Source: a virus
Taxonomy: Duplodnaviria; Heunggongvirae; Uroviricota; Caudoviricetes
DNA: 48,720 bases
Virus record (IMG/VR): IMGVR_UViG_2541047815_000004
Direction: 5' to 3' (one strand)
Position 1 is the stretch's first letter. Each line of letters begins with the position of its first letter. The notes under the pieces are model-generated. The model was not told the DNA's origin and did no database searches. It worked only from the letters and a program-made list of their open reading frames with translations. The position numbers and the translations under genes are program-made. This document shows, in pieces, positions 3,306 to 48,720 of this stretch.

Positions 3306-3881
3306 CTACGGCAGTGCTGGCCATTCAATATCCTGTGCAGTTGACGTATCAACACGGTTCAGCAACACCCGATACTTTTTCCAGGCTTCCAGCAATGAGG
3401 TTTCTTCCTCCGTTGCGATTTCCAGATCTACAGCATCCTGAAGTGGCGCAATATGCTCACTGGCTACCTGCATCAGGCTGTTTTTTGTTTCTTCCGCCTC
3501 TCGGATCCGGAACAGTTTTTCTGCTTCTGCATCTTTCACCCAGGCTGTGCCGTTCCACTTCTGAAACTCCCCTTCCGGCGATAACCAGGTAACATTTTCC
3601 GGTAACGGACCGAGTTCAGAAATAAATAACGCGTCCCCTGACGCTACGTCATAAACCGTTTTACCCCGATGGTCTTCATCGAGATGCCACGATGCCTTAT
3701 CACTGTTGAAAACAGCCACAAAGCCAGCAGGAATATCTGGTGGTGCAATATCGGTACTGTTTGCTGGCAGACCTGTATGAGGCGGAATATATGCGTCACC
3801 TTCACCAATAAATTCATTAGTTCCGGCCAGCAGATTATAAATTTTTATGGTCCGTGGTTGTTCACTCATTCTGAATGCCAT
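3306..3881 (-). CDS. tfaQ: Tail fibre assembly protein (Tfa), 191 aa
   Basis: Immediately downstream of stf with a 1-nt stop/start overlap; sequence typical of lambda Tfa homologues. Confidence 0.8.
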
Positions 3882-18500: not shown

Positions 18501-18914
18501 TTAATTCGTGTACGTGATCTGGTACGTGATTTCCGCCATCGCCCAGGTGGCCATCTCATTATCACGTTGATAGTTAAAACCGAGTGGGATCAGGGTGTCG
18601 ATGAGTCCGGAAAGTGCCGGTATATCATTCAGGGCAGGGAAAATGGTGCTCTCCATCCACATATCCAGCTCTGAATCCGGTGCCTGTGCCCGGATGAAGA
18701 CGGCAATATGCAGAACAGCCTGCCAGTCATCTTCATCCGTCATTTTTCCGGTGTACTGAGCATCACTCAGCCACACCGCCACGGCAGGCAGTTCCTGCGC
18801 ATCAATAAATGCCGGAAGCCCGTCAAAAAACGTGGCGCTGTCTCCACACTGTTCCCGAAGGCGTGCCAGTACGACCTGGCGGATTTGTGTATGTCGGTTC
18901 ATCGGGTCAGCCAT
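18501..18914 (-). CDS. U: Tail terminator protein U, 137 aa
   Basis: Lambda gpU-like motifs (ATFFDG, PAVAVWL, PDSELDMWMES, DIPALS); position between Z and V. Confidence 0.85.
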   Translation of the reverse strand: MADPMNRHTQIRQVVLARLREQCGDSATFFDGLPAFIDAQELPAVAVWLSDAQYTGKMTDEDDWQAVLHIAVFIRAQAPDSELDMWMESTIFPALNDIPALSGLIDTLIPLGFNYQRDNEMATWAMAEITYQITYTN

Positions 18915-19477
18915 AACCTCAGTTGTTGTTTTAGTGCATACCCCAGCTGTTTCGGCATTTCCGCAGCAATGATGTGGTCGCGGGCATCTTCAAATGCCTG
19001 TGTCAGCGGTCCGGACAGCGGGATTTTCACCACATCAATGGGGTAACGATTTTTGCCATCAATACGTCGCATCACATGCCAGCGACCATTCGCCAGTTGC
19101 TGAATAAACGCATCCCGGAAAAGATATTTACCCACCTTCAGCACACTGCCACGGTACTGCAGTTTTCCACCACGCCGGGCCAGTCTGACCCGGGCTGTCC
19201 CCAGCTTAATGGCGGGCAGATTGCCCCGGTTAACGCGGATCCTGACCGTCATTTTTCCTGACGGACTGGCTTTAAACACCCGGACACGCTGACGTACCAG
19301 TTTCAGGGGGATCCCTTTCACCTGGTTATCTCCCGCAACGGTATTCCCGGCAACCTGCCGGGTGGCAACCGAGACCGCTTTCTGTGCCACACGGTTTATC
19401 GCCCATGCGCTGGCCTGTGGCACCATACGGGTATCAAGGCTGTTCAGATTGCGGATGGCATTCTCAAGCCCCTTCAT
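18899..19477 (-). CDS. Z: Tail completion protein Z, 192 aa
   Basis: Same length as lambda gpZ; immediately upstream of U with overlap. Confidence 0.8.
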   Translation of the reverse strand: MKGLENAIRNLNSLDTRMVPQASAWAINRVAQKAVSVATRQVAGNTVAGDNQVKGIPLKLVRQRVRVFKASPSGKMTVRIRVNRGNLPAIKLGTARVRLARRGGKLQYRGSVLKVGKYLFRDAFIQQLANGRWHVMRRIDGKNRYPIDVVKIPLSGPLTQAFEDARDHIIAAEMPKQLGYALKQQLRLWLTR

Positions 19478-20166: not shown

Positions 20167-22125
20167 TTACGCCGTACATTTCACCAGACCGCGGTGATCA
20201 ACTGGCGCAACACCAGCGTCAATACGCACTTTCGTTGTCACGCCATCCACACTGAAGCCCTCCATCTGATCAATATATGGCGTATCCACACCGTTGAGAT
20301 AAGCCACTTCAATCGTATCGGAGCCTTTGGACGCAGCCAGGTAGAAGGTGGTCTGGCTGTTATCATCAAGACGAGGCTCTGCAATAACGGTCGCAAAATC
20401 TTTCACCGGGTTAATAATACCGGCGTTAATGTCAGCCCCCTTGACACTTGAGGAGCGAATGACCTGGTTAGCAACAGACTCCATCGCCGTCGGTACCAGT
20501 ACGAACGCAGGACGAATATTCAGATGACGCTCACCCTCTTTCTGAACGCGCATCAACTGGCGGGCTTTATCCAGCGATGCCACGTCCATTGCCGCGCTCT
20601 CCAGTACGTTTGCATGTTTCGCTTTATCGAACAGACTTACATTATCTGTGGAGATTTTCGGGTTAGACGTCAGAATGGCATAAACCAGATCGGCAATAGT
20701 GGATTTCGCCGCACGGCCCAGCTTCATCGGGACATCGGTCAGCATATTCAGATCATCATTGATAATGGCCTGACGGGTGATACTGAACAGCTCGCCATAG
20801 GTCGCCAGTGCAATAGTGGCCTGTTTATCTCCGGTGGTGACGTATTTATATTCTGCCCCTTCACGCACCTGACGCAGAGCACTGAAGCCCCCCATACCCA
20901 CACGATGGGCAATTTTAAAATCAGACAACTGACCTTTCCGCGTCCACTGTTCATAGGTTTCAGGGGCATCTTCCCAGCCCTGCAGAATGGCTTTGTTCGC
21001 AACATCCAGCAGAATATTACCGAAGTCAGACGTACTGTGTGTGAACGCCGCACCGACCATCTGCATCGGGTTATAACTGGAAACACCAATACCACGTTCA
21101 GTCAGTGACATACGGGCATATTCACGCAGGGTCATCCCGTTGTAGACATTATCACGTTCAGTTTTTTCAAACCCGGCGCGCGCCATCAGCGCCTGGCGGA
21201 TCCCGTCCCCCACAAAATTACCGTTACCGGCATAAATATGAGCCGGGGTATTTTTATTGGATGGCGTGGACTCGCGCCCCATCTCGTTCAACAGCTTTTC
21301 GCGGGCCTGCTCCAGCGAACATTCAGGATCGGCAAGACACTGAGCCTGCAACGACTGATAACGCCCGCCAAACATGGCAAACAGATCATTAATACCGTTT
21401 ACACGCGCTTTTTGCTCTGCCAGGACCTGCGCACGGATGCTGTTTTCATCCACCACGGGTGCTGCTGCCTGCACTGGCGTCCGGGAGGCTGCAGGTCCAT
21501 CATCCTGTACGCGTGGAGCACTGTTGCGTGGCGGAGTAATCATATTTCGAATGGATTCCGGCATCTTTTTAAATTCCTCTGTACGTTTTGACTGAATACA
21601 TGCCATTGCCTTAACGGCTGGTGTCACCTGATCAGCAAATCCCTGTGCCAGACATTCGGCACCGGACATCCAGGTCTCATCCGCCAGCATGGCAGCAATT
21701 TCATCGGTGGTTTTCCCGGTTTTCTGTGCATAAGCGGGTAACAGAACCGCCTCAACTTTATCGAGCAGGTCGGCATAGGTGCGCATGTCCTCCGCATCAC
21801 CGCCCGTAAAGCCAAATGGTTTATGAATCATCATGAAGGAGTTTTCCGGCATAATGACCGGGTTTCCCACCATCGCAATGACCGACGCCATTGACGCCGC
21901 CACACCGTCGACATAAACGGTAATGGACGCACCATGTGTTTTCAGTGCATTAAAAATGGCGATGCCTTCAAAGACATCGCCACCCGGTGAATTAATATGG
22001 AGATTAATGTGGGTGATATCGCCCAGTGCATTCAGATCACTGATAAACTGCTTCGCCGTAACACCCCAGAAACCAATCTCGTCATAAATATAAATATCCG
22101 CGTCACTCTGGTGACCTGCCTGCAT
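20167..22125 (-). CDS. Fused prohead protease (ClpP-like) - scaffold-like linker - HK97-fold major capsid protein, about 652 aa from Met88
   Basis: N-terminal ClpP/S49-like motifs (INSPGGDVFEG, MIHKP), a coiled-coil Ala/Gln-rich middle and a C-terminal capsid-like domain; start chosen so that it overlaps the portal stop by 15 nt. Confidence 0.7.
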   Translation of the reverse strand: MQAGHQSDADIYIYDEIGFWGVTAKQFISDLNALGDITHINLHINSPGGDVFEGIAIFNALKTHGASITVYVDGVAASMASVIAMVGNPVIMPENSFMMIHKPFGFTGGDAEDMRTYADLLDKVEAVLLPAYAQKTGKTTDEIAAMLADETWMSGAECLAQGFADQVTPAVKAMACIQSKRTEEFKKMPESIRNMITPPRNSAPRVQDDGPAASRTPVQAAAPVVDENSIRAQVLAEQKARVNGINDLFAMFGGRYQSLQAQCLADPECSLEQAREKLLNEMGRESTPSNKNTPAHIYAGNGNFVGDGIRQALMARAGFEKTERDNVYNGMTLREYARMSLTERGIGVSSYNPMQMVGAAFTHSTSDFGNILLDVANKAILQGWEDAPETYEQWTRKGQLSDFKIAHRVGMGGFSALRQVREGAEYKYVTTGDKQATIALATYGELFSITRQAIINDDLNMLTDVPMKLGRAAKSTIADLVYAILTSNPKISTDNVSLFDKAKHANVLESAAMDVASLDKARQLMRVQKEGERHLNIRPAFVLVPTAMESVANQVIRSSSVKGADINAGIINPVKDFATVIAEPRLDDNSQTTFYLAASKGSDTIEVAYLNGVDTPYIDQMEGFSVDGVTTKVRIDAGVAPVDHRGLVKCTA

Positions 22126-22138
22126 CCTGAACCAGGAA

Positions 22139-23647
22139 TTATTCTTCGGACTGGTCGTCGGTGTGCTGCGGCTCCTGTCGTTTCGTTGCGGCACTGCTGC
22201 CTCCTTTATCACTGGCCGGATCGGTATCAAATACCAGATCCAGCTTGCGGTTTTCATCAATTTCGGCCTTGCGCCGACGTTTGACATCATCTGGATTACG
22301 ACCACCTGCACGTACCCAGTCTGATTCTGTCGCCGCTCCACCACGAATCTGAATTTTCCAGGCCTCAGCCTCCTTAACAGGGTCAATCCACGGCATCACC
22401 GGTCCGGAATACACCGCGGTATACAGTGAAGATCGGTCCAGATCGCGGGGTAGCCTGATAACACCGGATGCCACAGCCTGTTTCAGCCAGGCACGGTACA
22501 TCGGGCGGGTGACGGCACCAATAAACCAGTCCTGCAGGATCAGGTAGCCATCAGTAGATTCAACCAGCTCCTGACGCTGGGCGCTGTAAGTGCCGTTATA
22601 GTTGCGCGCTGTACTGGAAAAACTCAGACGACTGCCCGCAGCCACGGCACGCAACTGACCATTACGAAAAGTTTCAAGGTTAGGATTGGGGCGATCCGAC
22701 TTCACCATTCCGATTTCTTCGCCGGGTTTCAGATCGTCGTAAATAATGCCTGGCTGAATGGTAAGCTCGCGTTCATTCTCCTTGCTGTCATTACCATCCG
22801 TTTCATAGCTCTGTCCGTCGCCTTTCCGGATGTACATCCCCAGAGCAGCGGCGATCCTTGCTGCAGTCAGCTCAGAATCTTCATACTCTTTCAGAGCACT
22901 GAGGCGGATCAGCACACCGGACAACAAAGACGTCCCGCGCATCTGGTGCAGACGGCGAACAAATTTAAGATGCAGCATTCGCTCTGCATCCACTTCTTTG
23001 GTTTCCATCTGCCGCCCGGATACGGGACGGCTTTTATACACCAGATATTTTTCGGGACGCCCCCAGTCATCAACAAACACGCCCTGATTCAGCCTGTTGC
23101 TCTCATCACTGGTCATGGGAATAAAGTCCGGCTCGAGCGCCTCCAGCCAGAAATGAACACCGGCAGAAGGCGTCAGGCTGTTTATGCGCCCGGAAACCAT
23201 CTGGGCAAACACCTCACCATCGCGCAGCCAGGTACGCAGCATCAGACGTTCCAGCATCGGACGGGTAAACTGCCCGGTGACCTCCGGACTGACAGACCAT
23301 TCACTCCATCGGGTACGTATCTCCGCTGCCAGATCACGGGCAATGGCCCCATTGCGTAATACCGGATGTGGCTCGACAATAATCCCGTTTTTCCCCACCA
23401 CCCGTTCTTCCAGCTTGTCAAATACACCAATGACCAGATCGTGGTTGTTATCAAGGTAACGGGCCTGCTCACGTAACGACACGGCCCCGTACTGGCTTAA
23501 CTGGTCGGCAGTTCGGCTCTCCCGTCGGGCTTTGTGTGTCCGCGTCGTTTTTACGGCCTCATAAGCCTGGATCACCGCACGGGAACGCAGCCTTGCCGCT
23601 TTCCATCCTGGTGAAAAAACGCCAATCACATCATCAAGAATTGCCAT
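22139..23647 (-). CDS. Portal protein (lambda gpB-like), about 502 aa from Met25
   Basis: Size and position between W/terminase and the protease-capsid gene; acidic C-terminus; ATG overlaps the W stop by 1 nt. Confidence 0.8.
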   Translation of the reverse strand: MAILDDVIGVFSPGWKAARLRSRAVIQAYEAVKTTRTHKARRESRTADQLSQYGAVSLREQARYLDNNHDLVIGVFDKLEERVVGKNGIIVEPHPVLRNGAIARDLAAEIRTRWSEWSVSPEVTGQFTRPMLERLMLRTWLRDGEVFAQMVSGRINSLTPSAGVHFWLEALEPDFIPMTSDESNRLNQGVFVDDWGRPEKYLVYKSRPVSGRQMETKEVDAERMLHLKFVRRLHQMRGTSLLSGVLIRLSALKEYEDSELTAARIAAALGMYIRKGDGQSYETDGNDSKENERELTIQPGIIYDDLKPGEEIGMVKSDRPNPNLETFRNGQLRAVAAGSRLSFSSTARNYNGTYSAQRQELVESTDGYLILQDWFIGAVTRPMYRAWLKQAVASGVIRLPRDLDRSSLYTAVYSGPVMPWIDPVKEAEAWKIQIRGGAATESDWVRAGGRNPDDVKRRRKAEIDENRKLDLVFDTDPASDKGGSSAATKRQEPQHTDDQSEE

Positions 23648-23865
23648 CAGAACCTCGCCAGCCGGTACCCGGGATGCCCCCGTCGTCGTGTAATCAGAGC
23701 CGCAAGGCGGCGCTCCCACTCCTGCCGCCCCTGCCGGATCTCAGATAAGTTTTCCATGGTCATCTGCTGACCATTAAAAGTGACGGATTTTCCGTCCAGC
23801 ACCGCCATTTCAGCTTCCGTATAACGCTGAATCATGGCTTCAATATCATTCTGATTCATAACCAT
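23647..23865 (-). CDS. Head-tail joining protein W-like, 72 aa
   Basis: Small ORF between large terminase and portal; C-terminal RRRGHPGY resembles the lambda gpW C-terminus (RRRGPAGF). Confidence 0.55.
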   Translation of the reverse strand: MVMNQNDIEAMIQRYTEAEMAVLDGKSVTFNGQQMTMENLSEIRQGRQEWERRLAALITRRRGHPGYRLARF

Positions 23866-25955
23866 CCTCCGGAAGTCAGCCAGGGGTTAACATCGTCAGT
23901 TACTGTTTTCTTCCGTTTTTGTTTTTTAACAGGCGTGGGTACCGGTTCCGGTGAGGGTGACGGTTCGGTACTGTCCGGGACACACTCCAGCCAGGTTTCC
24001 CGGCTCGCCCACTCCGGTGCATCCGGCCAGCGGATCTTTTCGTATCCATGCAGAATGACCAGAGCCTCGGCATACACCATCAGGTCAAAAGCTTCGTTGG
24101 CACCGCGACCCGGCTTACTCCATTTCCCTTCACTGCTCCGCTCTTCATACGTCAGTTCGTCGTAAAACCAGCTCCCCAGCCAGTCAGGGAAATGCACATA
24201 GCCTGGACCTGGCGAGTCACGCCATAACGCGTTATTCACCCGGTCTTTCAGGGCATCCGTCTGAAGAAGCCAGAGCGGCACATCACCTGCGGCCTGCGCC
24301 CGGCGGCCCGTTCGTCCGGTGTTATCAGGGAATGTACGGCTGATCAGTTTTGCGCGCCGGATGCTGTCGCCCTTAAACAGGTAAATACGTTTACCAAGGC
24401 CATCACGACGGCAACGACGCCAGAATTTATAGGCATTATCAGTGACCCCGTCTTCACCGCCGGAGTCCACCGCCATTGCCATCAGTCGCATTTGTTGAGA
24501 AGGATCGGAGGCCAGCGGCCAGCTTTTATGAAAAACATCCGTCAGCAGGACATCCCAGTCTTCCGGATAGCTGGCCGGATCAATTCGCTGGCTCTCCCCG
24601 TCGCAGTCACTGCGCAATGACTGCGTGATGTTGTAACGATCAATAATCCAGCGTTCGCCACGGCTGCCATAGCCCGTTACCTGAACCACAAAACGGCGAT
24701 GACGTCCCGCCTGCACATCCACTGTCGCCACAAGGAAATTAACGCCATCCGGAACACTGCGGGAAGGAACTGGCTCTGCCCGCTGCTCAAGCAGTTCACT
24801 TTTTCGTTGCTCCATGCTGGCACGAGGAAGATAAGGCAATCCCCAGTCGGTGTTGATAACCGCCCTGAGTGTTTCTTCGCTTCCTGTCGCTTCATACTCC
24901 TGTTCTGCAGTCAGTAATTTGTAAACCAGTTGCGCCCAGGTCTGATACGCAGCAGCTGGCCCTTCCATCCAGAAACTGGCGATACGGGAGCGGCGCGGTT
25001 CACCGGAAACGTTGCCGTTACGATCAATGACCTGACCTTCACGCAACCAGACTCCTGCACTATTGAGCTCACGCTTTTTCTCCGCAGTGATAATGCCGCT
25101 GCAGTGCGGGCAAAGTAGATACGCCGCCTCACTGGCTTTAAAGGGATCCGGTTCATTACGGTAGCCGGTCATGGCATCCATAGCTGGCTGAAAATATTCA
25201 CCGCAGTGCGGACATGGCCAGTACCAGCGGCGGCGGTCACCACGATTGTAAAGGGAAAGAATACCAGTCGTCGGTGGCGCTTCATGAGGCGACTTACGTC
25301 GCCATTTGCTGTCGCAGATGTCACGTCCCGGCGAGCTCTCCACCAGAGTCATCCCGGCGGACATAAATGTGGTGGTACGTTTTGAGGCCAGGGAGAAACC
25401 ATCACCCTCGCTGTCGATATTCTCCGGAAAACGGTCGTAATCGGTTAAGGCGACAAACCGGTAATCCGACGACGACATAATGTTGACCGAGGGCCAACCA
25501 ATTTTAAGGAACGAGCCATCCCTGAACGTCTTATCATGGACATTATTGTCGTTACGACGTGGACTCATTCTTTTCTTTACCGCCGCACTGCTTCTGAACG
25601 TTCTGTCGAGGCGCTTTTTAGAATGCTCGCGGGCCTTATCTTCGGTCATCTGCACAACGAGCATGTCCGAAGGATCGCAAACGATGGTATAGACAATCCA
25701 TCCATCGATCAGACCAATGGTCTTCCCTGTTCGCGCAGGACCAACAAAAATCACCGCATCGTATTCACGCGATGCCAGGCAGTTCATGGGCTCAATGATG
25801 TAGGGTGTCAGTTCAGGATCCCATGGCACCGAGTTACCAGCCCCCTTGGGAACACGCATGAATTTTTTAACAGCCTCCGAAATCGGCATGCGACGTGGTG
25901 GGGAAAATCCTGCCGATATGTCCCTTCCCAAATTTCGGGCTGATGAAAAACCCAT
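23856..25955 (-). CDS. Terminase large subunit (lambda gpA family), 699 aa
   Basis: Walker A (VGPARTGKT), Cys cluster CPHCGEY...CPHC, C-terminal nuclease-like domain; size near lambda gpA. Confidence 0.9.
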   Translation of the reverse strand: MGFSSARNLGRDISAGFSPPRRMPISEAVKKFMRVPKGAGNSVPWDPELTPYIIEPMNCLASREYDAVIFVGPARTGKTIGLIDGWIVYTIVCDPSDMLVVQMTEDKAREHSKKRLDRTFRSSAAVKKRMSPRRNDNNVHDKTFRDGSFLKIGWPSVNIMSSSDYRFVALTDYDRFPENIDSEGDGFSLASKRTTTFMSAGMTLVESSPGRDICDSKWRRKSPHEAPPTTGILSLYNRGDRRRWYWPCPHCGEYFQPAMDAMTGYRNEPDPFKASEAAYLLCPHCSGIITAEKKRELNSAGVWLREGQVIDRNGNVSGEPRRSRIASFWMEGPAAAYQTWAQLVYKLLTAEQEYEATGSEETLRAVINTDWGLPYLPRASMEQRKSELLEQRAEPVPSRSVPDGVNFLVATVDVQAGRHRRFVVQVTGYGSRGERWIIDRYNITQSLRSDCDGESQRIDPASYPEDWDVLLTDVFHKSWPLASDPSQQMRLMAMAVDSGGEDGVTDNAYKFWRRCRRDGLGKRIYLFKGDSIRRAKLISRTFPDNTGRTGRRAQAAGDVPLWLLQTDALKDRVNNALWRDSPGPGYVHFPDWLGSWFYDELTYEERSSEGKWSKPGRGANEAFDLMVYAEALVILHGYEKIRWPDAPEWASRETWLECVPDSTEPSPSPEPVPTPVKKQKRKKTVTDDVNPWLTSGGWL

Positions 25956-25963
25956 TATTCCTC

Positions 25964-26491
25964 CTAGAGACTCTCTCCTTCCTCATCAGGAATTAATTCA
26001 GCAGCACAAGCCTCGTAGGATTTTTCCTGAAGAGTGTATCGCAGGTCATCAATGGCCTGCTGTACAACGCCGACGGCCTGAGGAGTCAGGGCGCAATCGC
26101 GTTCAAGAACATCCGGAATTGTCTCCAGAACCTGGACGACAGCCTTTCTCATGGACGAATAGACGATGACTACTTCATCAACTGGGATGAGTTTTCGCTG
26201 CTCCTTTTCCAGCTTGATCCTTTCATTTTCAGACTGGTACCAGTCCTTTCTCTCTTTCGGCTCCATACGGGATGGATCATGAACAGAGTCTGCTGCCTCA
26301 TGCTTCACACTAAACAGGGCGGGCCCGACATGCTGCAGGGCGTAAACGGGGTTCCCCCTGACAGTCGCAGCCACAGGAGTGTTGGCCGCGAGGAGCCGTT
26401 TTTTTACTGTGTCCCGGTGAAGCCCAAAGGCCTCGGCGATTTTAAAAACACTCCAGTAATAAGCATCACCGATCCCGCTCACATTTGACAT
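25964..26491 (-). CDS. Terminase small subunit (Nu1-like), about 175 aa from Met5
   Basis: N-terminal HTH-like segment (SVFKIAEAFGLHRDTVKKRL); immediately upstream of the large terminase; GGAG Shine-Dalgarno before the second ATG. Confidence 0.7.
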   Translation of the reverse strand: MSNVSGIGDAYYWSVFKIAEAFGLHRDTVKKRLLAANTPVAATVRGNPVYALQHVGPALFSVKHEAADSVHDPSRMEPKERKDWYQSENERIKLEKEQRKLIPVDEVVIVYSSMRKAVVQVLETIPDVLERDCALTPQAVGVVQQAIDDLRYTLQEKSYEACAAELIPDEEGESL

Positions 26492-26669
26492 AAGCAACTC
26501 CATCTGGCAGGTGAAAATCAGGTTTATTTATATATTTCAATTAATTGCAAACTGGTCTAATGACAGGGAGAAAAAAATATTGTACAGGTGAAAAGAGAAA
26601 TAACTTTTAATTATCAATAAATTACCAAACATGCTGCCGCCGCCATGGAAATGCAAAAACTAGTCTTTT

Positions 26670-26690
26670 TCCGCGACGCTCCCGCCCCGT
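26670..26690. other. Candidate cos site (cosN-like cohesive-end region)
   Basis: On the minus strand the sequence reads ACG-GGGCGGGAGCGT-CGCGGA, resembling lambda cos ACG-GGGCGGCGACCT-CGCGGG; it lies about 196 nt upstream of the Nu1-like start (lambda: 190 nt); lambda cos is quoted from memory. Confidence 0.5.
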
Positions 26691-26867
26691 GGCAGGGGCC
26701 CCCACCGGGAGGACCCGACAGCCTGACAGCCGTGACGAGCATCTGATACAGCGCTTTACATAATGGCATAGGAATAATTCAGAAGGACATCACAGCATGC
26801 CTACACAAATTAGTGTGAGTGTCCTGTTTCTTCCTACGCACAGGACTGACGAGCATGAGGGGAAAAT

Positions 26868-27035
26868 ATGCGAACCATAAATGCCTCATCTTCAGCAATG
26901 CAACCGGCATCCGAACAGGACGATATTGTAAATTCACCTAATTACGAGGACATTGCAGTAGTTGAATTGCAGCTCTGTATTAGCCTGACAGTGACAGAAT
27001 GCGATATTGACTCTGTCACAGGTGAAATAGTTTGA
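26868..27035 (+). CDS. Candidate 55-aa acidic small protein (MRTINASSSAMQPASEQDDIVNSPNYEDIAVVELQLCISLTVTECDIDSVTGEIV)
   Basis: ATG with GAGGGG Shine-Dalgarno 5 nt upstream; below the 60-aa cutoff of the ORF track; no homologue recognised. Confidence 0.25.
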   Translation: MRTINASSSAMQPASEQDDIVNSPNYEDIAVVELQLCISLTVTECDIDSVTGEIV

Positions 27036-27055
27036 ATGATTAGCAGTTATGGTGC

Positions 27056-27262
27056 TCAGTCAACCACCAGGGAATAATCCTTCGAATTCTTATCGTGCTT
27101 CACCAACGCTGCCTCAATTGCCCTGAATGCTTCCAGAGACACCTGATGTTCTATACATGCAATTACAACATCCGGGTAACTCATAGAAATGGTGCTATTA
27201 AGCATATTTTTTACACGAATCAGATCCAACGAGAGTTCATCAGCAGATTGTTCTTTATTCAT
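27056..27262 (-). CDS. ynfO: Small prophage protein YnfO-like, 68 aa
   Basis: Recognised from memory as a Qin small protein; position between terminase and ydfO. Confidence 0.5.
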
Positions 27263-36897: not shown

Positions 36898-37053
36898 TTA
36901 CTCCTCAGGTTCGTAAGCTGTGAAGACAGCGACCTCCGTCTGCCCGGTTCGGATTCGTACCTCGCAGAGGTCTTTCCTCGTTACCAGTGCCGTCACTATG
37001 ACGGTTAAACAGATGACGATCAGGGCGATTAACATCGCCTTTTGCTGCTTCAT
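36898..37053 (-). CDS. hokD: Hok-family type I toxin, 51 aa
   Basis: MKQQKAMLIALIVICLTVIVTALVTRKDLCEVRIRTGQTEVAVFTAYEPEE; AAGGAG Shine-Dalgarno; in-frame upstream extension in the track ORF. Confidence 0.85.
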   Translation of the reverse strand: MKQQKAMLIALIVICLTVIVTALVTRKDLCEVRIRTGQTEVAVFTAYEPEE

Positions 37054-37516
37054 AGCCTGCTTCTCCTTGCCTTTCGGCACGTAAGAGGCTAGCCTACATG
37101 TGTCTAGCATGAAATTGGCCTCAGATTAATGTTAAGCGTCTTGCAGGACGCGTAATGTTAACTGGGGCTTTTCTCTATCTGCCGTTGGTGTTCATGCCCG
37201 AGGCAGATACGTCAGTGATTCAATACAACTATTGGGTATAGTTCCTCTGATTTTTTCTGTGGAAATGGGGCACAACCACTAGTCACCACCAGCACTTCTT
37301 TTAATACGCAAAGTCCGACACAAGCTAACCTTCTAGTCCGCTTTGAGCGAGGAACGGACGTTGTATAGGTTAGTTAGCGCATCCTCATGAATTGGTGTTC
37401 CTTAAGAGATTCATAACGAAGCGTTTGCATCGGCGGTAGTGTTTATAATCGGTATGAGCCCCCGAGAGGGCTCACATTTCAAATGTATTACGAGGTTACG
37501 CTCAATTAGAAACTTC

Positions 37517-43056: not shown

Positions 43057-43632
43057 ATGGATTTCGACACAATCATGGAAAAGGCTTACGAAGAATACTT
43101 CGAAGGCCTTGCCGAAGGCGAAGAAGCTCTCAGCTTCAGTGAGTTTAAACAGGCACTCAGAATAAGAATGTGCTCTCACAATGACGCAGAGCACAAATAT
43201 GAGAAGCAAAATCAGACCGCAGAAAATTTTGTTCTGGAACCCGGAGAAACGCTTTTCAAAATTCCCGTTACGTGCCCCATTTGCGGTTTTACATCAGAAG
43301 AACTTGACGACTCCTGTAACAATCAGGAAACAACCAAGTATGTCGAAGATGATACCGAGTGCGCACGAAGAACGATTATATCCACGAGTCCAAACTCCAG
43401 GACCAATAAATCTCACTTTGAGAGGGTGATTAATCCACTCCCCCAAACCAATAAAAAAGATGCCGGAGGACAAAAAACCCAATGGAACAACGGGATATCT
43501 GTCAAAAAAAGACGTTCCATTAAAGACAAACAACGCAGCGCCAACAACTGTAAGCGCTTTATACCAGTAATCAATTTTCATGTTCTTAAGCGGATTTATA
43601 GGTGGTTGCGACATTGCTTAATGAATCCTTAA
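43057..43632 (+). CDS. ydfB: Contiguous 191-aa ORF covering the region K-12 annotates as two genes, ydfB and ydfC; contains a CPICG zinc-ribbon-like motif
   Basis: Starts MDFDTIMEKAYEEYFEGLAEG (YdfB-like) and continues through RMCSHNDAEHKYEKQNQTAENFVLEPGETLFKIPVTCPICGF (YdfC-like) without a stop. Confidence 0.55.
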   Translation: MDFDTIMEKAYEEYFEGLAEGEEALSFSEFKQALRIRMCSHNDAEHKYEKQNQTAENFVLEPGETLFKIPVTCPICGFTSEELDDSCNNQETTKYVEDDTECARRTIISTSPNSRTNKSHFERVINPLPQTNKKDAGGQKTQWNNGISVKKRRSIKDKQRSANNCKRFIPVINFHVLKRIYRWLRHCLMNP

Positions 43633-43891
43633 AACTGTGGTGATTTTAAGGATACCACCTCGCCTGACGTGGTTAAAAGCAGGCACACAACACGAAAGCG
43701 CACGGCGAAGTTCGTCTCACTGTACGGTGTCGTTAAATTTAATTCGACCGTGCGCTTCCGGTTGTGGCAACCCGCGAAATGGCGCGGCGGTAAGTATGGC
43801 GGGGTTATTCCTTCCCCGTAGAGGACACCGAGTTGTCAGGTTGACCATACGCTTAAGTGACAACCCCGCTGCAACGCCCTCTGTTATCAAT

Positions 43892-43944
43892 TTTCTGGTG
43901 ACGTTTGGCGGTATCAGTTTTACTCCGTGACTGCTCTGCCGCCG
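43892..43944 (+). ncRNA. dicF: DicF small RNA (ftsZ-targeting sRNA processed from the dicB operon transcript)
   Basis: Sequence TTTCTGGTGACGTTTGGCGGTATCAGTTTTACTCCGTGACTGCTCTGCCGCC followed by TTTTT matches DicF as recalled; between ydfC and dicB. Confidence 0.8.
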
Positions 43945-44118
43945 TTTTTAAAGTGAGTTTTGTGATGCGGTGAATGCGGCTAAGCGCACGCGGAACAGTT
44001 AAAACCAAAAACAGTGTTATGGGTGGATTCTCTGTATCCGGCGTTAATTGTTAACTGGTTAACGTCACCTGGAGGCACCAGGCACTGCATCACAAAATTC
44101 ATTGTTGAGGACGCGATA

Positions 44119-44307
44119 ATGAAAACGTTATTACCAAACGTTAATACGTCTGAAGGTTGTTTTGAAATTGGTGTCACTATCAGTAACCCTGTATTTACTG
44201 AAGATGCCATTAACAAGAGAAAACAAGAACGGGAGCTATTAAATAAAATATGCATTGTTTCAATGCTGGCTCGTTTACGTCTGATGCCAAAAGGATGTGC
44301 ACAATGA
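44119..44307 (+). CDS. dicB: Cell division inhibitor DicB, 62 aa
   Basis: MKTLLPNVNTSEGCFEIGVTISNPVFTEDAINKRKQERELLNKICIVSMLARLRLMPKGCAQ; GAGGA Shine-Dalgarno. Confidence 0.85.
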   Translation: MKTLLPNVNTSEGCFEIGVTISNPVFTEDAINKRKQERELLNKICIVSMLARLRLMPKGCAQ

Positions 44308-44495
44308 ATTCAGCATTTGCGCTTGTTCTGACAGTTTTTCTTGTTTCCGGAGAGCCAGTTGATATTGCAGTCAGTGTTCACAGGACAATGCAGGAGTGTA
44401 TGACTGCAGCAACCGAACAGAAAATTCCCGGTAACTGTTACCCAGTCGATAAAGTTATTCACCAGGATAATATCGAAATCCCGGCAGGTCTTTAA
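44304..44495 (+). CDS. ydfD: YdfD small membrane/lysis protein, 63 aa
   Basis: MNSAFALVLTVFLVSGEPVDIAVSV... with N-terminal transmembrane segment; start overlaps the dicB stop (ATGA). Confidence 0.75.
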   Translation: MNSAFALVLTVFLVSGEPVDIAVSVHRTMQECMTAATEQKIPGNCYPVDKVIHQDNIEIPAGL

Positions 44496-44588
44496 AACAG
44501 TTCCGTAATAAATATCCGGTTTCATTCTTATATGCCAGCAATGGCAGGGATTTGTTCATCCTTAAATCTGTCATGAGGTTAAAACAAA

Positions 44589-47081
44589 ATGAGTAAAGTC
44601 TTTATTTGCGCCGCTATTCCTGACGAACTGGCAACAAGGGAAGAAGGCGCTGTGGCTGTAGCCACAGCCATTGAAGCTGGCGACGAACGCCGTGCTCGAG
44701 CAAAATTTCACTGGCAGTTCCTGGAACATTATCCGGCTGCTCAGGACTGCGCTTATAAATTTATTGTCTGCGAGGATAAACCTGGCATACCCCGCCCTGC
44801 CCTCGATTCATGGGATGCTGAATATATGCAGGAAAACCGCTGGGATGAGGAGTCTGCTTCTTTTGTCCCGGTTGAGACTGAATCCGATCCGATGAACGTC
44901 ACTTTTGACAAGCTGGCCCCTGAAGTACAGAACGCTGTCATGGTTAAGTTCGACACATGTGAAAACATCACCGTTGATATGGTTATTAGCGCACAGGAAT
45001 TGTTGCAGGAAGACATGGCAACATTCGACGGACATATCGTTGAAGCGTTGATGAAAATGCCAGAAGTTAACGCCATGTATCCGGAGCTTAAGTTGCACGC
45101 CATTGGGTGGGTTAAGCATAAATGTATTCCTGATGCTAAATGGCCCGAAATTCAGGCAGAGATGCGCATCTGGAAAAAACGTCGCGAAGGTGAACGCAAG
45201 GAAACCGGAAAATACACGTCTGTTGTTGATCTCGCCCGCGCCAAAGCCAATCAACAGTACACTGAAAATTCAACAGGAAAAATCAGCCCGGTCATTGCTG
45301 CCATTCATCGCGAATACAAGCAGACATGGAAAACACTGGATGACGAACTGGCCTACGCTCTCTGGCCTGGTGATGTGGATGCCGGAAACATTGACGGCAG
45401 CATCCATCGCTGGGCAAAAAAAGAAGTTATCGACAACGACCGCGAAGACTGGAAGCGTATCTCGGCATCAATGCGCAAACAGCCTGATGCCCTTCGCTAC
45501 GACCGCCAAACTATTTTTGGCCTTGTCCGTGAGCGTCCGATCGACATTCACAAAGATCCCGTAGCACTGAACAAATATATCTGCGAATACCTGACGACAA
45601 AGGGCGTGTTTGAGAATGAAGAAACAGACCCGGGCACTGTTGATGTTCTCCAGTCATCAGAAACACAAACTGATGCAGTGGAAACCGAGGTATCTGATAT
45701 CCCAAAAAATGAAACCGCGCCGGAAGCTGAACCATCTGTAGAGCGTGAGGGGCCGTTCTATTTCCTCTTCGCAGATAAGGACGGAGAAAAATACGGTCGC
45801 GCAAACAAACTTTCTGGTCTGGATAAGGCACTGGCTGCTGGCGCCACTGAAATCACAAAAGAAGAATATTTTGCCCGAAAAAATGGCACATACACGGGCT
45901 TACCGCAAAATGTAGATACCGCTGAAGATTCAGAACAACCAGAGCCGATAAAAGTTACCGCTGACGAAGTAAACAAAATTATGCAGGCAGCCAATATCAG
46001 CCAGCCTGACGCCGATAAGTTGCTTGCTGCATCACGTGGTGAATTTGTTGAAGGGATTAGTGACCCGAATGATCCGAAATGGGTTAAGGGGATCCAGACC
46101 CGCGATTCTGTGAACCAGAACCAGCATGAATCGGAACGGAACTACCAAAAAGCGGAACGGAACTACCAAAAAGCGGAACAAAACAGCCCAAATGCGTTAC
46201 AAAACGAGCCAGAAACGAAACAGCCTGAACCAGTGGCGCAACAGGAAGTGGAAAAAGTCTGCACCGCCTGCGGTCAGACCGGCGGCGGCAACTGCCCTGA
46301 TTGTGGCGCGGTGATGGGCGACGCAACATACCAGGAAACATTCGATGAAGAGTATCAGGTTGAAGTTCAGGAAGATGATCCGGAGGAAATGGAAGGCGCT
46401 GAACATCCACACAAGGAGAACACTGGCGGCAATCAGCATCACGATAGCGATAATGAAACTAGCGAGACGGCAGATCGCTCAATTAAGGTGAACGGTCATC
46501 ACGAAATCACATCCACCAGCAGGACGTGTGACCATCTAATGATCGACCTTGAAACCATGGGAAAAAATCCTGATGCCCCGATCATCTCAATAGGTGCAAT
46601 ATTTTTCGATCCGCAAACCGGAGATATGGGACCGGAATTTAGTAAGACTATCGATCTGGAAACTACTGGCGGAGTCATTGATCGGGACACCATTAAATGG
46701 TGGCTTAAGCAATCACGCGAAGCGCAATCTGCCATTATGACCGATGAAATCCCGTTAGATGATGCACTGTTACAATTGCGGGAATTTATCGACGAAAACT
46801 CCGGTGAATTTTTTGTTCAGGTCTGGGGAAATGGAGCCAACTTCGACAACACGATTTTGCGCCGTTCATACGAGCGGCAGGGGATCCCCTGCCCGTGGCG
46901 TTACTACAACGATCGCGATGTACGCACAATCGTTGAGCTGGGGAAAGCCATAGACTTCGATGCCAGAACGGCTATTCCATTCGAAGGTGAGCGCCATAAT
47001 GCACTTGATGACGCCCGTTACCAGGCAAAATACGTTTCAGTTATCTGGCAAAAACTGATCCCGAGTCAGGCTGATTCTTAA
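44589..47081 (+). CDS. ydfE: Full-length YdfE-like protein, 830 aa: N-terminal YdfE domain, acidic repeat-containing linker, Cys4 zinc ribbon, C-terminal DEDDh (DnaQ-like) 3'-5' exonuclease domain
   Basis: N-terminus MSKVFICAAIPDELATREEG recognised as YdfE; CTACGQTGGGNCPDCG zinc ribbon; exonuclease motifs MIDLETMG, VWGNGANFD, HNALDDARYQA. Confidence 0.7.
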   Translation: MSKVFICAAIPDELATREEGAVAVATAIEAGDERRARAKFHWQFLEHYPAAQDCAYKFIVCEDKPGIPRPALDSWDAEYMQENRWDEESASFVPVETESDPMNVTFDKLAPEVQNAVMVKFDTCENITVDMVISAQELLQEDMATFDGHIVEALMKMPEVNAMYPELKLHAIGWVKHKCIPDAKWPEIQAEMRIWKKRREGERKETGKYTSVVDLARAKANQQYTENSTGKISPVIAAIHREYKQTWKTLDDELAYALWPGDVDAGNIDGSIHRWAKKEVIDNDREDWKRISASMRKQPDALRYDRQTIFGLVRERPIDIHKDPVALNKYICEYLTTKGVFENEETDPGTVDVLQSSETQTDAVETEVSDIPKNETAPEAEPSVEREGPFYFLFADKDGEKYGRANKLSGLDKALAAGATEITKEEYFARKNGTYTGLPQNVDTAEDSEQPEPIKVTADEVNKIMQAANISQPDADKLLAASRGEFVEGISDPNDPKWVKGIQTRDSVNQNQHESERNYQKAERNYQKAEQNSPNALQNEPETKQPEPVAQQEVEKVCTACGQTGGGNCPDCGAVMGDATYQETFDEEYQVEVQEDDPEEMEGAEHPHKENTGGNQHHDSDNETSETADRSIKVNGHHEITSTSRTCDHLMIDLETMGKNPDAPIISIGAIFFDPQTGDMGPEFSKTIDLETTGGVIDRDTIKWWLKQSREAQSAIMTDEIPLDDALLQLREFIDENSGEFFVQVWGNGANFDNTILRRSYERQGIPCPWRYYNDRDVRTIVELGKAIDFDARTAIPFEGERHNALDDARYQAKYVSVIWQKLIPSQADS
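46132..46184. repeat. Perfect 21-bp tandem repeat (CGGAACGGAACTACCAAAAAG x2 plus a partial third copy) inside the ydfE-like gene
   Basis: Encodes ERNYQKA-ERNYQKA in frame. Confidence 0.85.
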
Positions 47082-47439: not shown

Positions 47440-48720
47440 ATGAAATATCCGACAGGCGTGGAAAACCATGGAGGGAAATTACGTATCTGGTTTGTTTATA
47501 AAGGCGTAAGAGTCAGGGAAAACCTGGGGGTTCCTGACACAGCAAAAAACAGGCGCGTTGCAGGTGAGCTACGCGCCTCTGTTTGTTACGCAATAAAAAC
47601 TGGTGTTTTCGACTATGCAAAACAGTTTCCCTCCTCACGCAATCTGGAAAAATTTGGTGAGACCCGACAAGATTTAACCATAAAAGAACTGGCTGAAAAA
47701 TTTCTGGCACTGAAAGAAACTGAAGTTGCAAAAACATCACTCAACACATACCGTGCCGTCATCAAAAATATCCTGAGCATAATCGGTGAAAAAAATCTTG
47801 CCTCATCGATTAATAAAGAAAAATTACTGGAGGTTCGTAAAGAGCTACTGACTGGATACCAGATCCCCAAAAGTAACTATATTGTTACACAACCAGGGAG
47901 ATCGGCTGTAACTGTAAATAATTACATGACAAATCTTAACGCCGTGTTCCAGTTTGGTGTTGATAACGGTTACCTGGCAGATAACCCGTTTAAGGGGATC
48001 TCGCCATTAAAGGAATCAAGAACCATTCCGGATCCTCTTTCGCGGGAGGAATTCATCCGTCTTATCGATGCGTGCAGAAATCAGCAAGCCAAAAATTTAT
48101 GGTGTGTTTCTGTTTATACTGGCGTTCGCCCTGGTGAGCTGTGTGCACTTGGATGGGAGGACATAGATCTGAAAAATGGAACAATGATGATCAGGAGAAA
48201 TTTAGCAAAAGACCGTTTCACGGTACCAAAAACACAGGCGGGAACCAATCGGGTCATTCATCTTATTAAGCCAGCAATCGACGCTCTCCGGAGTCAGATG
48301 ACATTAACGAGACTGAGCAAAGAGCATATCATTGATGTTCACCTCAGAGAGTATGGCAGAACAGAAAAACATAAATGCACCTTTGTTTTTCAACCTGAAG
48401 TGTCAGCGAGAGTAAAAAATTATGGTGACCATTTTACCGTTGACTCAATAAGGCAGATGTGGGACGCAGCGATAAAACGTGCCGGACTCCGCCATCGAAA
48501 ATCATATCAGTCGAGACATACTTATGCCTGCTGGTCGCTGACAGCTGGTGCTAACCCGGCATTTATAGCAAACCAGATGGGCCATGCAGATGCGCAAATG
48601 GTATTTCAGGTATACGGAAAATGGATGTCTGAAAACAATAATGCACAGGTAGCTTTGTTAAATACACAGTTAAGCGAGTTTGCCCCAACCATGCCCCATA
48701 ACGAAGCAATGAAAAATTAA
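47440..48720 (+). CDS. intQ: Tyrosine integrase (phage integrase family), about 426 aa from Met6; stop codon is the last codon of the window
   Basis: Catalytic-domain motifs: TGVRPGE (Arg), SRHTYAC (His-x-x-Arg region), VFQVYGKWM (Tyr); N-terminal arm-binding-like domain. Confidence 0.85.
   Translation: MKYPTGVENHGGKLRIWFVYKGVRVRENLGVPDTAKNRRVAGELRASVCYAIKTGVFDYAKQFPSSRNLEKFGETRQDLTIKELAEKFLALKETEVAKTSLNTYRAVIKNILSIIGEKNLASSINKEKLLEVRKELLTGYQIPKSNYIVTQPGRSAVTVNNYMTNLNAVFQFGVDNGYLADNPFKGISPLKESRTIPDPLSREEFIRLIDACRNQQAKNLWCVSVYTGVRPGELCALGWEDIDLKNGTMMIRRNLAKDRFTVPKTQAGTNRVIHLIKPAIDALRSQMTLTRLSKEHIIDVHLREYGRTEKHKCTFVFQPEVSARVKNYGDHFTVDSIRQMWDAAIKRAGLRHRKSYQSRHTYACWSLTAGANPAFIANQMGHADAQMVFQVYGKWMSENNNAQVALLNTQLSEFAPTMPHNEAMKN

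Follow-up and report, generated by a model that had tools for sequence, protein, structure and literature searches.

The minus strand between positions 26716 and 26491 of the window, by which we mean the whole 48,720-nt stretch of DNA analysed (IMG/VR record IMGVR_UViG_2541047815_000004), very probably carries the complete cosQ-cosN-cosB site of a lambdoid prophage of the cdtI/Tritos type, equipped with a Gifsy-2-type packaging and head module. We put the probability of this reading at about 0.88, taken as a whole and including the following mode of action. By analogy with lambda (PMC4669245, PMC9026076), the small terminase subunit (TerS), which belongs to the DUF1441 family, would bind sites in the AT-rich cosB that are specific to its class, with the help of a bend that IHF induces at cos positions +64 to +76. 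It would thereby position the large subunit (TerL), a member of the lambda gpA family, to nick the two strands of cosN at staggered points 12 bp apart. Nicking would yield virion DNA with the 5' single-stranded ends GGGCGGGAGCGT, and cosQ, located 22 nt upstream, would act together with cosN to direct the terminal cut of each packaged genome.

cosN, cosQ and the predicted cohesive end

The minus-strand string on which the preliminary description of this DNA was built is present exactly as it was given there: ACG (26690-26688), followed by GGGCGGGAGCGT (26687-26676) and CGCGGA (26675-26670), in the context ...CTGCC ACG GGGCGGGAGCGT CGCGGA AAAAGAC.... The 22-bp cosN, CCACG|GGGCGGGAGCGT|CGCGG (26671..26692, minus strand), equals lambda at 16 of 22 positions, and GGGCGGGAGCGT (26676..26687, minus strand) is predicted as a 12-nt 5' cohesive end, with nicks that would fall at 26688/26687 on the minus strand and at 26676/26675 on the plus strand. 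CG dinucleotides flank both nick positions (CCACG|...|CGCGG in the window, TTACG|...|CGCGG in lambda), and the spacing between the anchors CG|...|CGCGG is exactly that of lambda. The lambda sequence that the preliminary description gave for this comparison, with Nu1 starting at nucleotide 191, is borne out by record J02459, which starts with GGGCGGCGACCTCGCGGG, ends with ...GGGTCCTTTCCGGTGATCCGACAGGTTACG (TTACG) and places Nu1 at 191-736. The window and lambda disagree at four of the 12 overhang bases, the number first counted; these are positions 7, 8, 9 and 11 of GGGCGG|GAGCGT, base pairs 1-6 being those of lambda and all four changes lying within base pairs 7-12. Because of these four differences the ends would anneal poorly with lambda-type ends; a mismatch of two bases in the cohesive end lowers the yield about four-fold (Feiss et al., PMC4669245). 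A literature search for the 12-mer GGGCGGGAGCGT had as its sole match an unrelated mammalian promoter paper.

The site lies, as had also been noticed, in a GC-rich island within AT-rich DNA, with a GC content of 0.80 at 26675-26724 versus 0.18-0.36 across 26500-26650, toward the terminase gene. Upstream of cosN there is a cosQ-like heptamer, GGGTCCT (26710..26716, minus strand), an exact match to lambda 48473-48479, which by analogy with lambda (PMC4669245) would serve as the packaging-termination signal. It stands 22 nt from the top-strand nick position in the window and 23 nt in lambda. The preliminary description had placed the site at 26492-26700, an interval that contains cosN and misses cosQ at 26716-26710. 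The unit GCTGTCAG(GCT) occupies positions 26717-26735, just upstream of cosQ, and Tritos has one tandem copy more of it. A promoter and terminator scan of 26400-27100 gave nothing above expectation.

Could the resemblance to lambda be fortuitous, with the prophage using headful (pac) packaging or a site elsewhere? These doubts had been raised together with the original proposal. The composite pattern GGGTCCT-N18-26-CGGGGCGG-N6-CGCGG has one match in the window and none in 100 dinucleotide-preserving shuffles, so the lambda-like cosQ-cosN arrangement is not a product of chance. It is also kept upstream of the terminase genes in many genera, there are phage records that start at the site, and the TerL of the window falls in the gpA family of cos-type terminases. 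With 0/100 shuffles and a gpA-family TerL, chance similarity and headful packaging were both rejected, and we consider it next to impossible that either of them accounts for the site.

The phage records bear directly on the position of the ends. When window positions 27000-26300 (minus strand) were compared by megablast with 50,697 phage records, position 1 of the records of cdtI (AB285204/NC_009514) and Tritos (OV696610) corresponded to query position 314, that is, to window base 26687. Both records open with GGGCGGGAGCGTCGCGG... and close with ...CTGCCACG (right end ...CCACG); they have the same 12-nt GGGCGGGAGCGT at position 1 as the window overhang, and the same right end. The depositors of two independent genomes set their ends exactly at the base that had been proposed for the window, and these record starts support the idea of a cos of the lambda type that has a 12-nt end of its own. 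Tritos resides as a prophage in E. coli LF82 and gives rise to infectious virions (PMC9928086); the basis for its record start is not stated in that paper, and homology to lambda may have guided the choice of the start in both the cdtI and the Tritos record. The left nick position is the first base of both records, and the right one would follow from lambda and from the record of Hafnia phage yong2, which starts at the CGCGG that follows the overhang. In the record of the related phage LLS, bases 1-12, which correspond in position to the overhang of the window, are annotated as '5' extended single-strand cohesive site GGGCGGCGCGCT' (PMC12315714). At least 120 IMG/VR contigs carry the site, most of them from isolate genomes, and in the 80 matches whose positions were listed it is set in from the ends of the fetched stretch by at least 95 nt; being proviruses with an internal site, these contigs are uninformative on physical ends.

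In the virion-derived assembly of mEp460_4F5 (LR595868.1) the first bases are CCACG, 5 nt ahead of the predicted nick, and cosN is short by 3 nt (GGGCGGGAGCGCGG); the physical ends may have caused an assembly artefact here.

cosB, the terminase genes and the head module

The DNA between cosN and the terminase gene begins with an I2-like spacer (26655..26670, minus strand) that bears the palindrome AAAAAGACTAGTTTTT, and its CGCGGRAAANGGCTAGT is kept across cos classes. The palindrome-bearing stretch CGCGGAAAAAG(A/G)CTAGTTTTT, from +13 to +33, is common to all the cos classes, and the spacer is the last block they share, class-specific cosB starting at about +34. Position +24 (26664) is A in the window (AAAAAGACTAG) and in 7 of the 120 listed IMG/VR relatives, and G (AAAAAGGCTAG) in the other 113 as well as in cdtI, Tritos and HannyBb.

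Beyond the spacer, a class-specific element, TCCATGGCGGCGGCAGCATGT (26630..26650, minus strand), occupies the position of lambda R3 (+38 to +58) and is a candidate binding site for the small terminase. The motif CATGGCGGCGGCAGCATG at this position is kept in locus L016, whose TerS is 86% identical, and loci with other TerS subtypes have different trinucleotide-repeat motifs there. An exact IHF consensus, TATCAATAAATTA (WATCAANNNNTTR), follows on the plus strand at 26612..26624 (+64 to +76), in an I1-like position. Of 37 distinct cos regions, 13 have the consensus in the same orientation at +62 to +64, versus a mean of 0.23 in shuffles, and this positional conservation of the predicted site supports a lambda-like I1 bending site. 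In the distal part of cosB the direct repeat TTTTCACCTG is found at 26594-26585 and 26517-26508 (span 26508..26594, minus strand; copies at +94 and +171) with a conserved block at 26570-26532 (+118 to +156) between its copies, which makes it a candidate for R2/R1-like sites; TTTTCACCTG-CAG is also present just upstream of the TerS of PSTCR8lys. The repeat search of cosB otherwise returned AT-rich or trivial pairs only. Since the repeat content is not above that of shuffles (in an exhaustive 11-mer comparison for lambda-style R3/R2/R1 repeats, 18 of 100 shuffles reach the count), the R-site assignments in cosB are tentative.

After an exact 23-nt cosN core, the 120 listed IMG/VR contigs divide into three cosB classes, namely the window type (43 contigs), the mEp460/phi458 type (59) and the PhiR40_1 type (17), the remaining contig having another cosB. 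The TerS proteins of phages sampled in these classes are 37-42% identical to that of the window. One cosN allele serves three cosB/TerS classes, which is an addition to the known picture; another would be that the predicted IHF site is positionally kept in the long-cosB classes and absent from the short cosB of the mEp213 type. The cosQ-cosN allele with GGGCGGGAGCGT is joined to three unrelated cosB sequences, always with the junction just after the palindromic spacer. The spacer CGCGGAAAAAGGCTAGTTTTT (junction at about +34) might conceivably be a preferred recombination joint, at which TerS and cosB would be swapped while a cohesive-end 'compatibility group' (cosN, TerL, cosQ) would be kept, the four-base difference from lambda then barring chromosomes with mixed ends; we regard this scenario as rather unlikely.

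The small terminase subunit is encoded at 25964..26491 on the minus strand. The ATG at 26491, chosen by PGAP and in the Tritos annotation, gives a protein of 175 aa. With the first base of the overhang counted as 1, this ATG falls at nucleotide 197, and the distance first reported, '196 nt upstream' of the small terminase start, was right. An in-frame ATG at 26503 (nucleotide 185), the start chosen in the cdtI annotation, would give 179 aa. The preliminary description called this gene Nu1-like, a term that is defensible only in the sense of a putative distant homology, because the protein belongs to the DUF1441 family, has no Phage_Nu1 match and is linked to Nu1 by PHROG cross-matches. The window TerS matches DUF1441 (PF07278) at 1.7e-44 and has no match to Phage_Nu1 (PF07471) even at E<=10, a family to which lambda Nu1 scores 2.5e-100; BLASTP against Nu1 was not significant. 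It falls in phrog_141, 'terminase small subunit' (3.8e-65), with a cross-match to phrog_57, the group of Nu1 (1.1e-9), and lambda Nu1 matches phrog_141 reciprocally (5.6e-8), both cross-matches being nearly full length. When an alignment of 64 DUF1441 sequences was compared with Nu1 using hhalign, the two were collinear over 122 columns, with an E value of 0.0018 and a probability of only 14.8%. Run as a sequence profile against the PDB, the TerS alignment found only a weak generic HTH match (2eby, E 0.048) and no Nu1, and the single-sequence AlphaFold model of TerS was unusable (pLDDT 44.5). DUF1441 proteins at this gene position have already been treated as TerS (PMC8001559, PMC5037462). As in DUF1441 small terminases of the Gifsy-2, mEp213 and VT1-Sakai type, that of the window, which has the PF07278 domain, is encoded directly upstream of a gpA-family TerL, with cos within ~200 nt upstream, and is 100% identical to the TerS of cdtI, Tritos and HannyBb.

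The large terminase subunit (23856..25955, minus strand; 699 aa) belongs to the lambda gpA family (PF05876, 5e-81; PF20454, 3e-86), bears both the ATPase and the endonuclease domains and has no stops. It is 24% identical to lambda gpA over ~590 residues (BLASTP, E 2e-21), 99.1% identical to the TerL of cdtI and 99.6% identical to that of Tritos, and it is the enzyme expected to nick cosN. A lambda-family portal follows, and then a single ORF (20167-22386, minus strand) with the Pfam domains CLP_protease and Phage_capsid_4, which PGAP names 'ClpP-like prohead protease/major capsid protein fusion'. This fusion of protease and capsid is the Gifsy-2-type head arrangement (PMC12315714).

Relation to named phages and variation across the family

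The site of the window shares features with several described systems and differs from each of them: (i) cdtI and Tritos are the closest. Their cos regions are 98-99.5% identical to that of the window, and a comparison of cosQ, cosN and cosB that takes in HannyBb as well gives 97-99% identity. The window differs from cdtI and Tritos by a few point changes, such as the A for G at +24. Unlike theirs, the copy in the window sits in a prophage that looks partly degraded. (ii) Gifsy-1 has nearly the same cohesive end. As a check of the method we extracted the overhang of Gifsy-1 from its record, GGGCGGCAGCGT, and it departs from lambda, as published, at positions 8, 9 and 11 (PMC4669245, where Gifsy-1 is listed as lambda-like). 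This overhang equals that of the window at 11 of 12 bases, the sole change being at position 7 (C in Gifsy-1, G in the window), and Gifsy-1 also shares the cosQ GGGTCCT. However, its small terminase is a true Nu1/phage-21-type protein and its head genes are of the lambda/21 type, whereas the window has a DUF1441 TerS and the protease-capsid fusion. (iii) Lambda and the window have in common the heptamer of cosQ, a CG dinucleotide at each nick, overhang positions 1-6, a gpA-family TerL, the order cosQ-cosN-I2-cosB-terS-terL and an IHF consensus in cosB. The terS start is at a distance of 197 nt in the window and 191 nt in lambda, but the two cosB sequences are unrelated, repeats of the lambda R3/R2/R1 type could not be identified in that of the window, and the TerS proteins belong to different Pfam families. 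(iv) The mEp213/LLS cos, 5'-GGGCGGCGCGCT (PMC12315714), differs from the overhang of the window at 5 positions (7-11). Like the window, these phages have a DUF1441 TerS (~40% identity), the Gifsy-2-type head module and the cosQ-cosN frame; their cosB, in contrast, is short, with the TerS start at nucleotide 130, a TCATCATCATCA motif and no IHF consensus.

The mEp213/LLS-type class is a large one, with TCATCATCATCAT at about +42 and TerS at about +130, and its short cosB resembles the 'simple cosB' that Feiss described in N15.

How constant is the arrangement across the DUF1441 family? We sampled by tblastn 65 genome loci encoding DUF1441 TerS homologues, and 29 of them have a cosN in the same frame upstream of the match; the distance is 147-217 nt for 28 of these and 327 nt for the other. 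These sequences, with lambda included, comprise 12 distinct overhang alleles in which positions 1-6 (GGGCGG) are invariant and positions 7-12 vary; position 12 is T in 11 of the 12, and position 7, which is G in the window, is C in 10 of them, that of lambda among these. The flanks CG|...|CGCGG are present at all 29 cosN loci, the search pattern itself having required most of them. The cosQ heptamer was found at 21 of the 29 loci, and GGGTCCT is present in 117 of the 120 IMG/VR relatives among the matches listed. On the evidence of these alignments, the pattern in the 29 loci is the one that Feiss et al. (PMC4669245) give for lambda-like phages, in which base pairs 7-12 of cosN often differ, with conservation of the CG dinucleotides that flank the nicks and of the 7-bp cosQ. 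Variation in the right half of cosN also appears in Vahanian et al. 2017, as that work is cited in PMC12315714 and PMC9303873.

Some relatives deviate from this frame. The cosN of the Stx phages CP-1639 and 1720a-02 has the frame GGGCGGGCGGCGCGG, which is 2 nt shorter, and in Gifsy-2 there are 14 nt separating CACG from CGCGGG. Phage yong2 and a Scandinavium MAG have GA|GGGGGCAGCGACA|CGCGG, and the left half differs in yong2 and L016.

Such relatives, with other frame lengths (CP-1639, 1720a-02, Gifsy-2) or another left half (yong2 and L016), together with the 9-nt, 5'-extended cohesive ends reported for Cr-LKS3, whose TerS is of the DUF1441 family (PMC9303873), give some room to the view that the window holds a cos site whose nicks are offset or whose overhang is not 12 nt long. 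But the anchors in the window are spaced as in lambda, the GGGCGG is that of lambda and two phage records start at overhang base 1, and we judge this view very improbable.

The variant end was in fact already known, since GenBank/ENA records that date from 2007 and 2022 start with it and variation in the right half of cosN has been published (PMC4669245). What the present site adds is a well-supported allele, with G at position 7, to a picture in which the right half of cosN drifts and the left half, the CG dinucleotides and cosQ stay constant. The exact cos and cohesive end orient and delimit the genomes of a very common type of E. coli prophage, which includes cdt- and stx-associated relatives; a search of 5,426 complete E. 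coli genomes found at least 80% of the cos region of the window in 697. Knowledge of the site helps to predict which prophages or satellites one and the same terminase could package, and serves the design of end-mapping or cosmid-like tools. Beyond annotation its importance is little.

State of the host prophage

The cos region (301 bp searched) is 100% identical to that of E. coli 95-3322 (NZ_CP027461.1), whose PGAP annotation gives the prophage Qin-type gene names (dicB, ydfD, ydfU, ydfT, cspB/F/I, essD, rrrQ, rzpQ, gnsB). The prophage looks partly degraded. An istB of IS100kyp (IS21 family) adjoins a truncated early gene at about 43544-46780 of the window (PGAP), the gpZ-like tail gene (18887-19477, minus strand) has an internal stop flagged by PGAP, which in the translation lies five codons before the annotated end, PGAP lists tail-fibre pseudogenes, and no integrase was found within the 40 kb examined. 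In spite of the intact terminase genes and cos, the prophage may be unable to make phage on its own.

These lesions, and the minority allele A at spacer position +24 (7 of 120 listed relatives), speak for the view that the site is a genuine cos by descent and a silent relic in this strain, within a defective prophage that would never cut or package from it, short of functions supplied by a helper phage of matching specificity in the same cell. On the other hand, TerS and TerL have no stops and are 100% and 99.1-99.6% identical, respectively, to those of virion-forming phages, and cosQ, cosN and cosB have stayed as close to HannyBb, Tritos and cdtI as described above. We consider it possible, though the less probable outcome, that the site is silent in this way; in our preferred reading the prophage would still make use of it. 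As the question of a relic concerns the activity of the site and not its identity, it is compatible with our preferred reading, that of a complete cos of the cdtI/Tritos type.

Several structured RNAs were also recognised in the window. An Rfam match to the DicF sRNA (43893-43944, plus strand, 72.5 bits) lies, by coordinate mapping, in a truncated 3'-5' exoribonuclease pseudogene (PGAP), and not between ydfB and dicB, the place of dicF in the Qin prophage of K-12. Two cspA-type thermoregulator leaders (RF01766; 28945-29330 and 33102-33494, both minus strand) are present in the late region of the prophage, adjoining the cold-shock genes that PGAP names cspI and cspB. A sok antitoxin RNA (Rfam; 37048-37214, minus strand) adjoins hokD, and an IS009 RNA (Rfam; 3340-3538, minus strand, 226.7 bits) lies beyond the tail-fibre genes.
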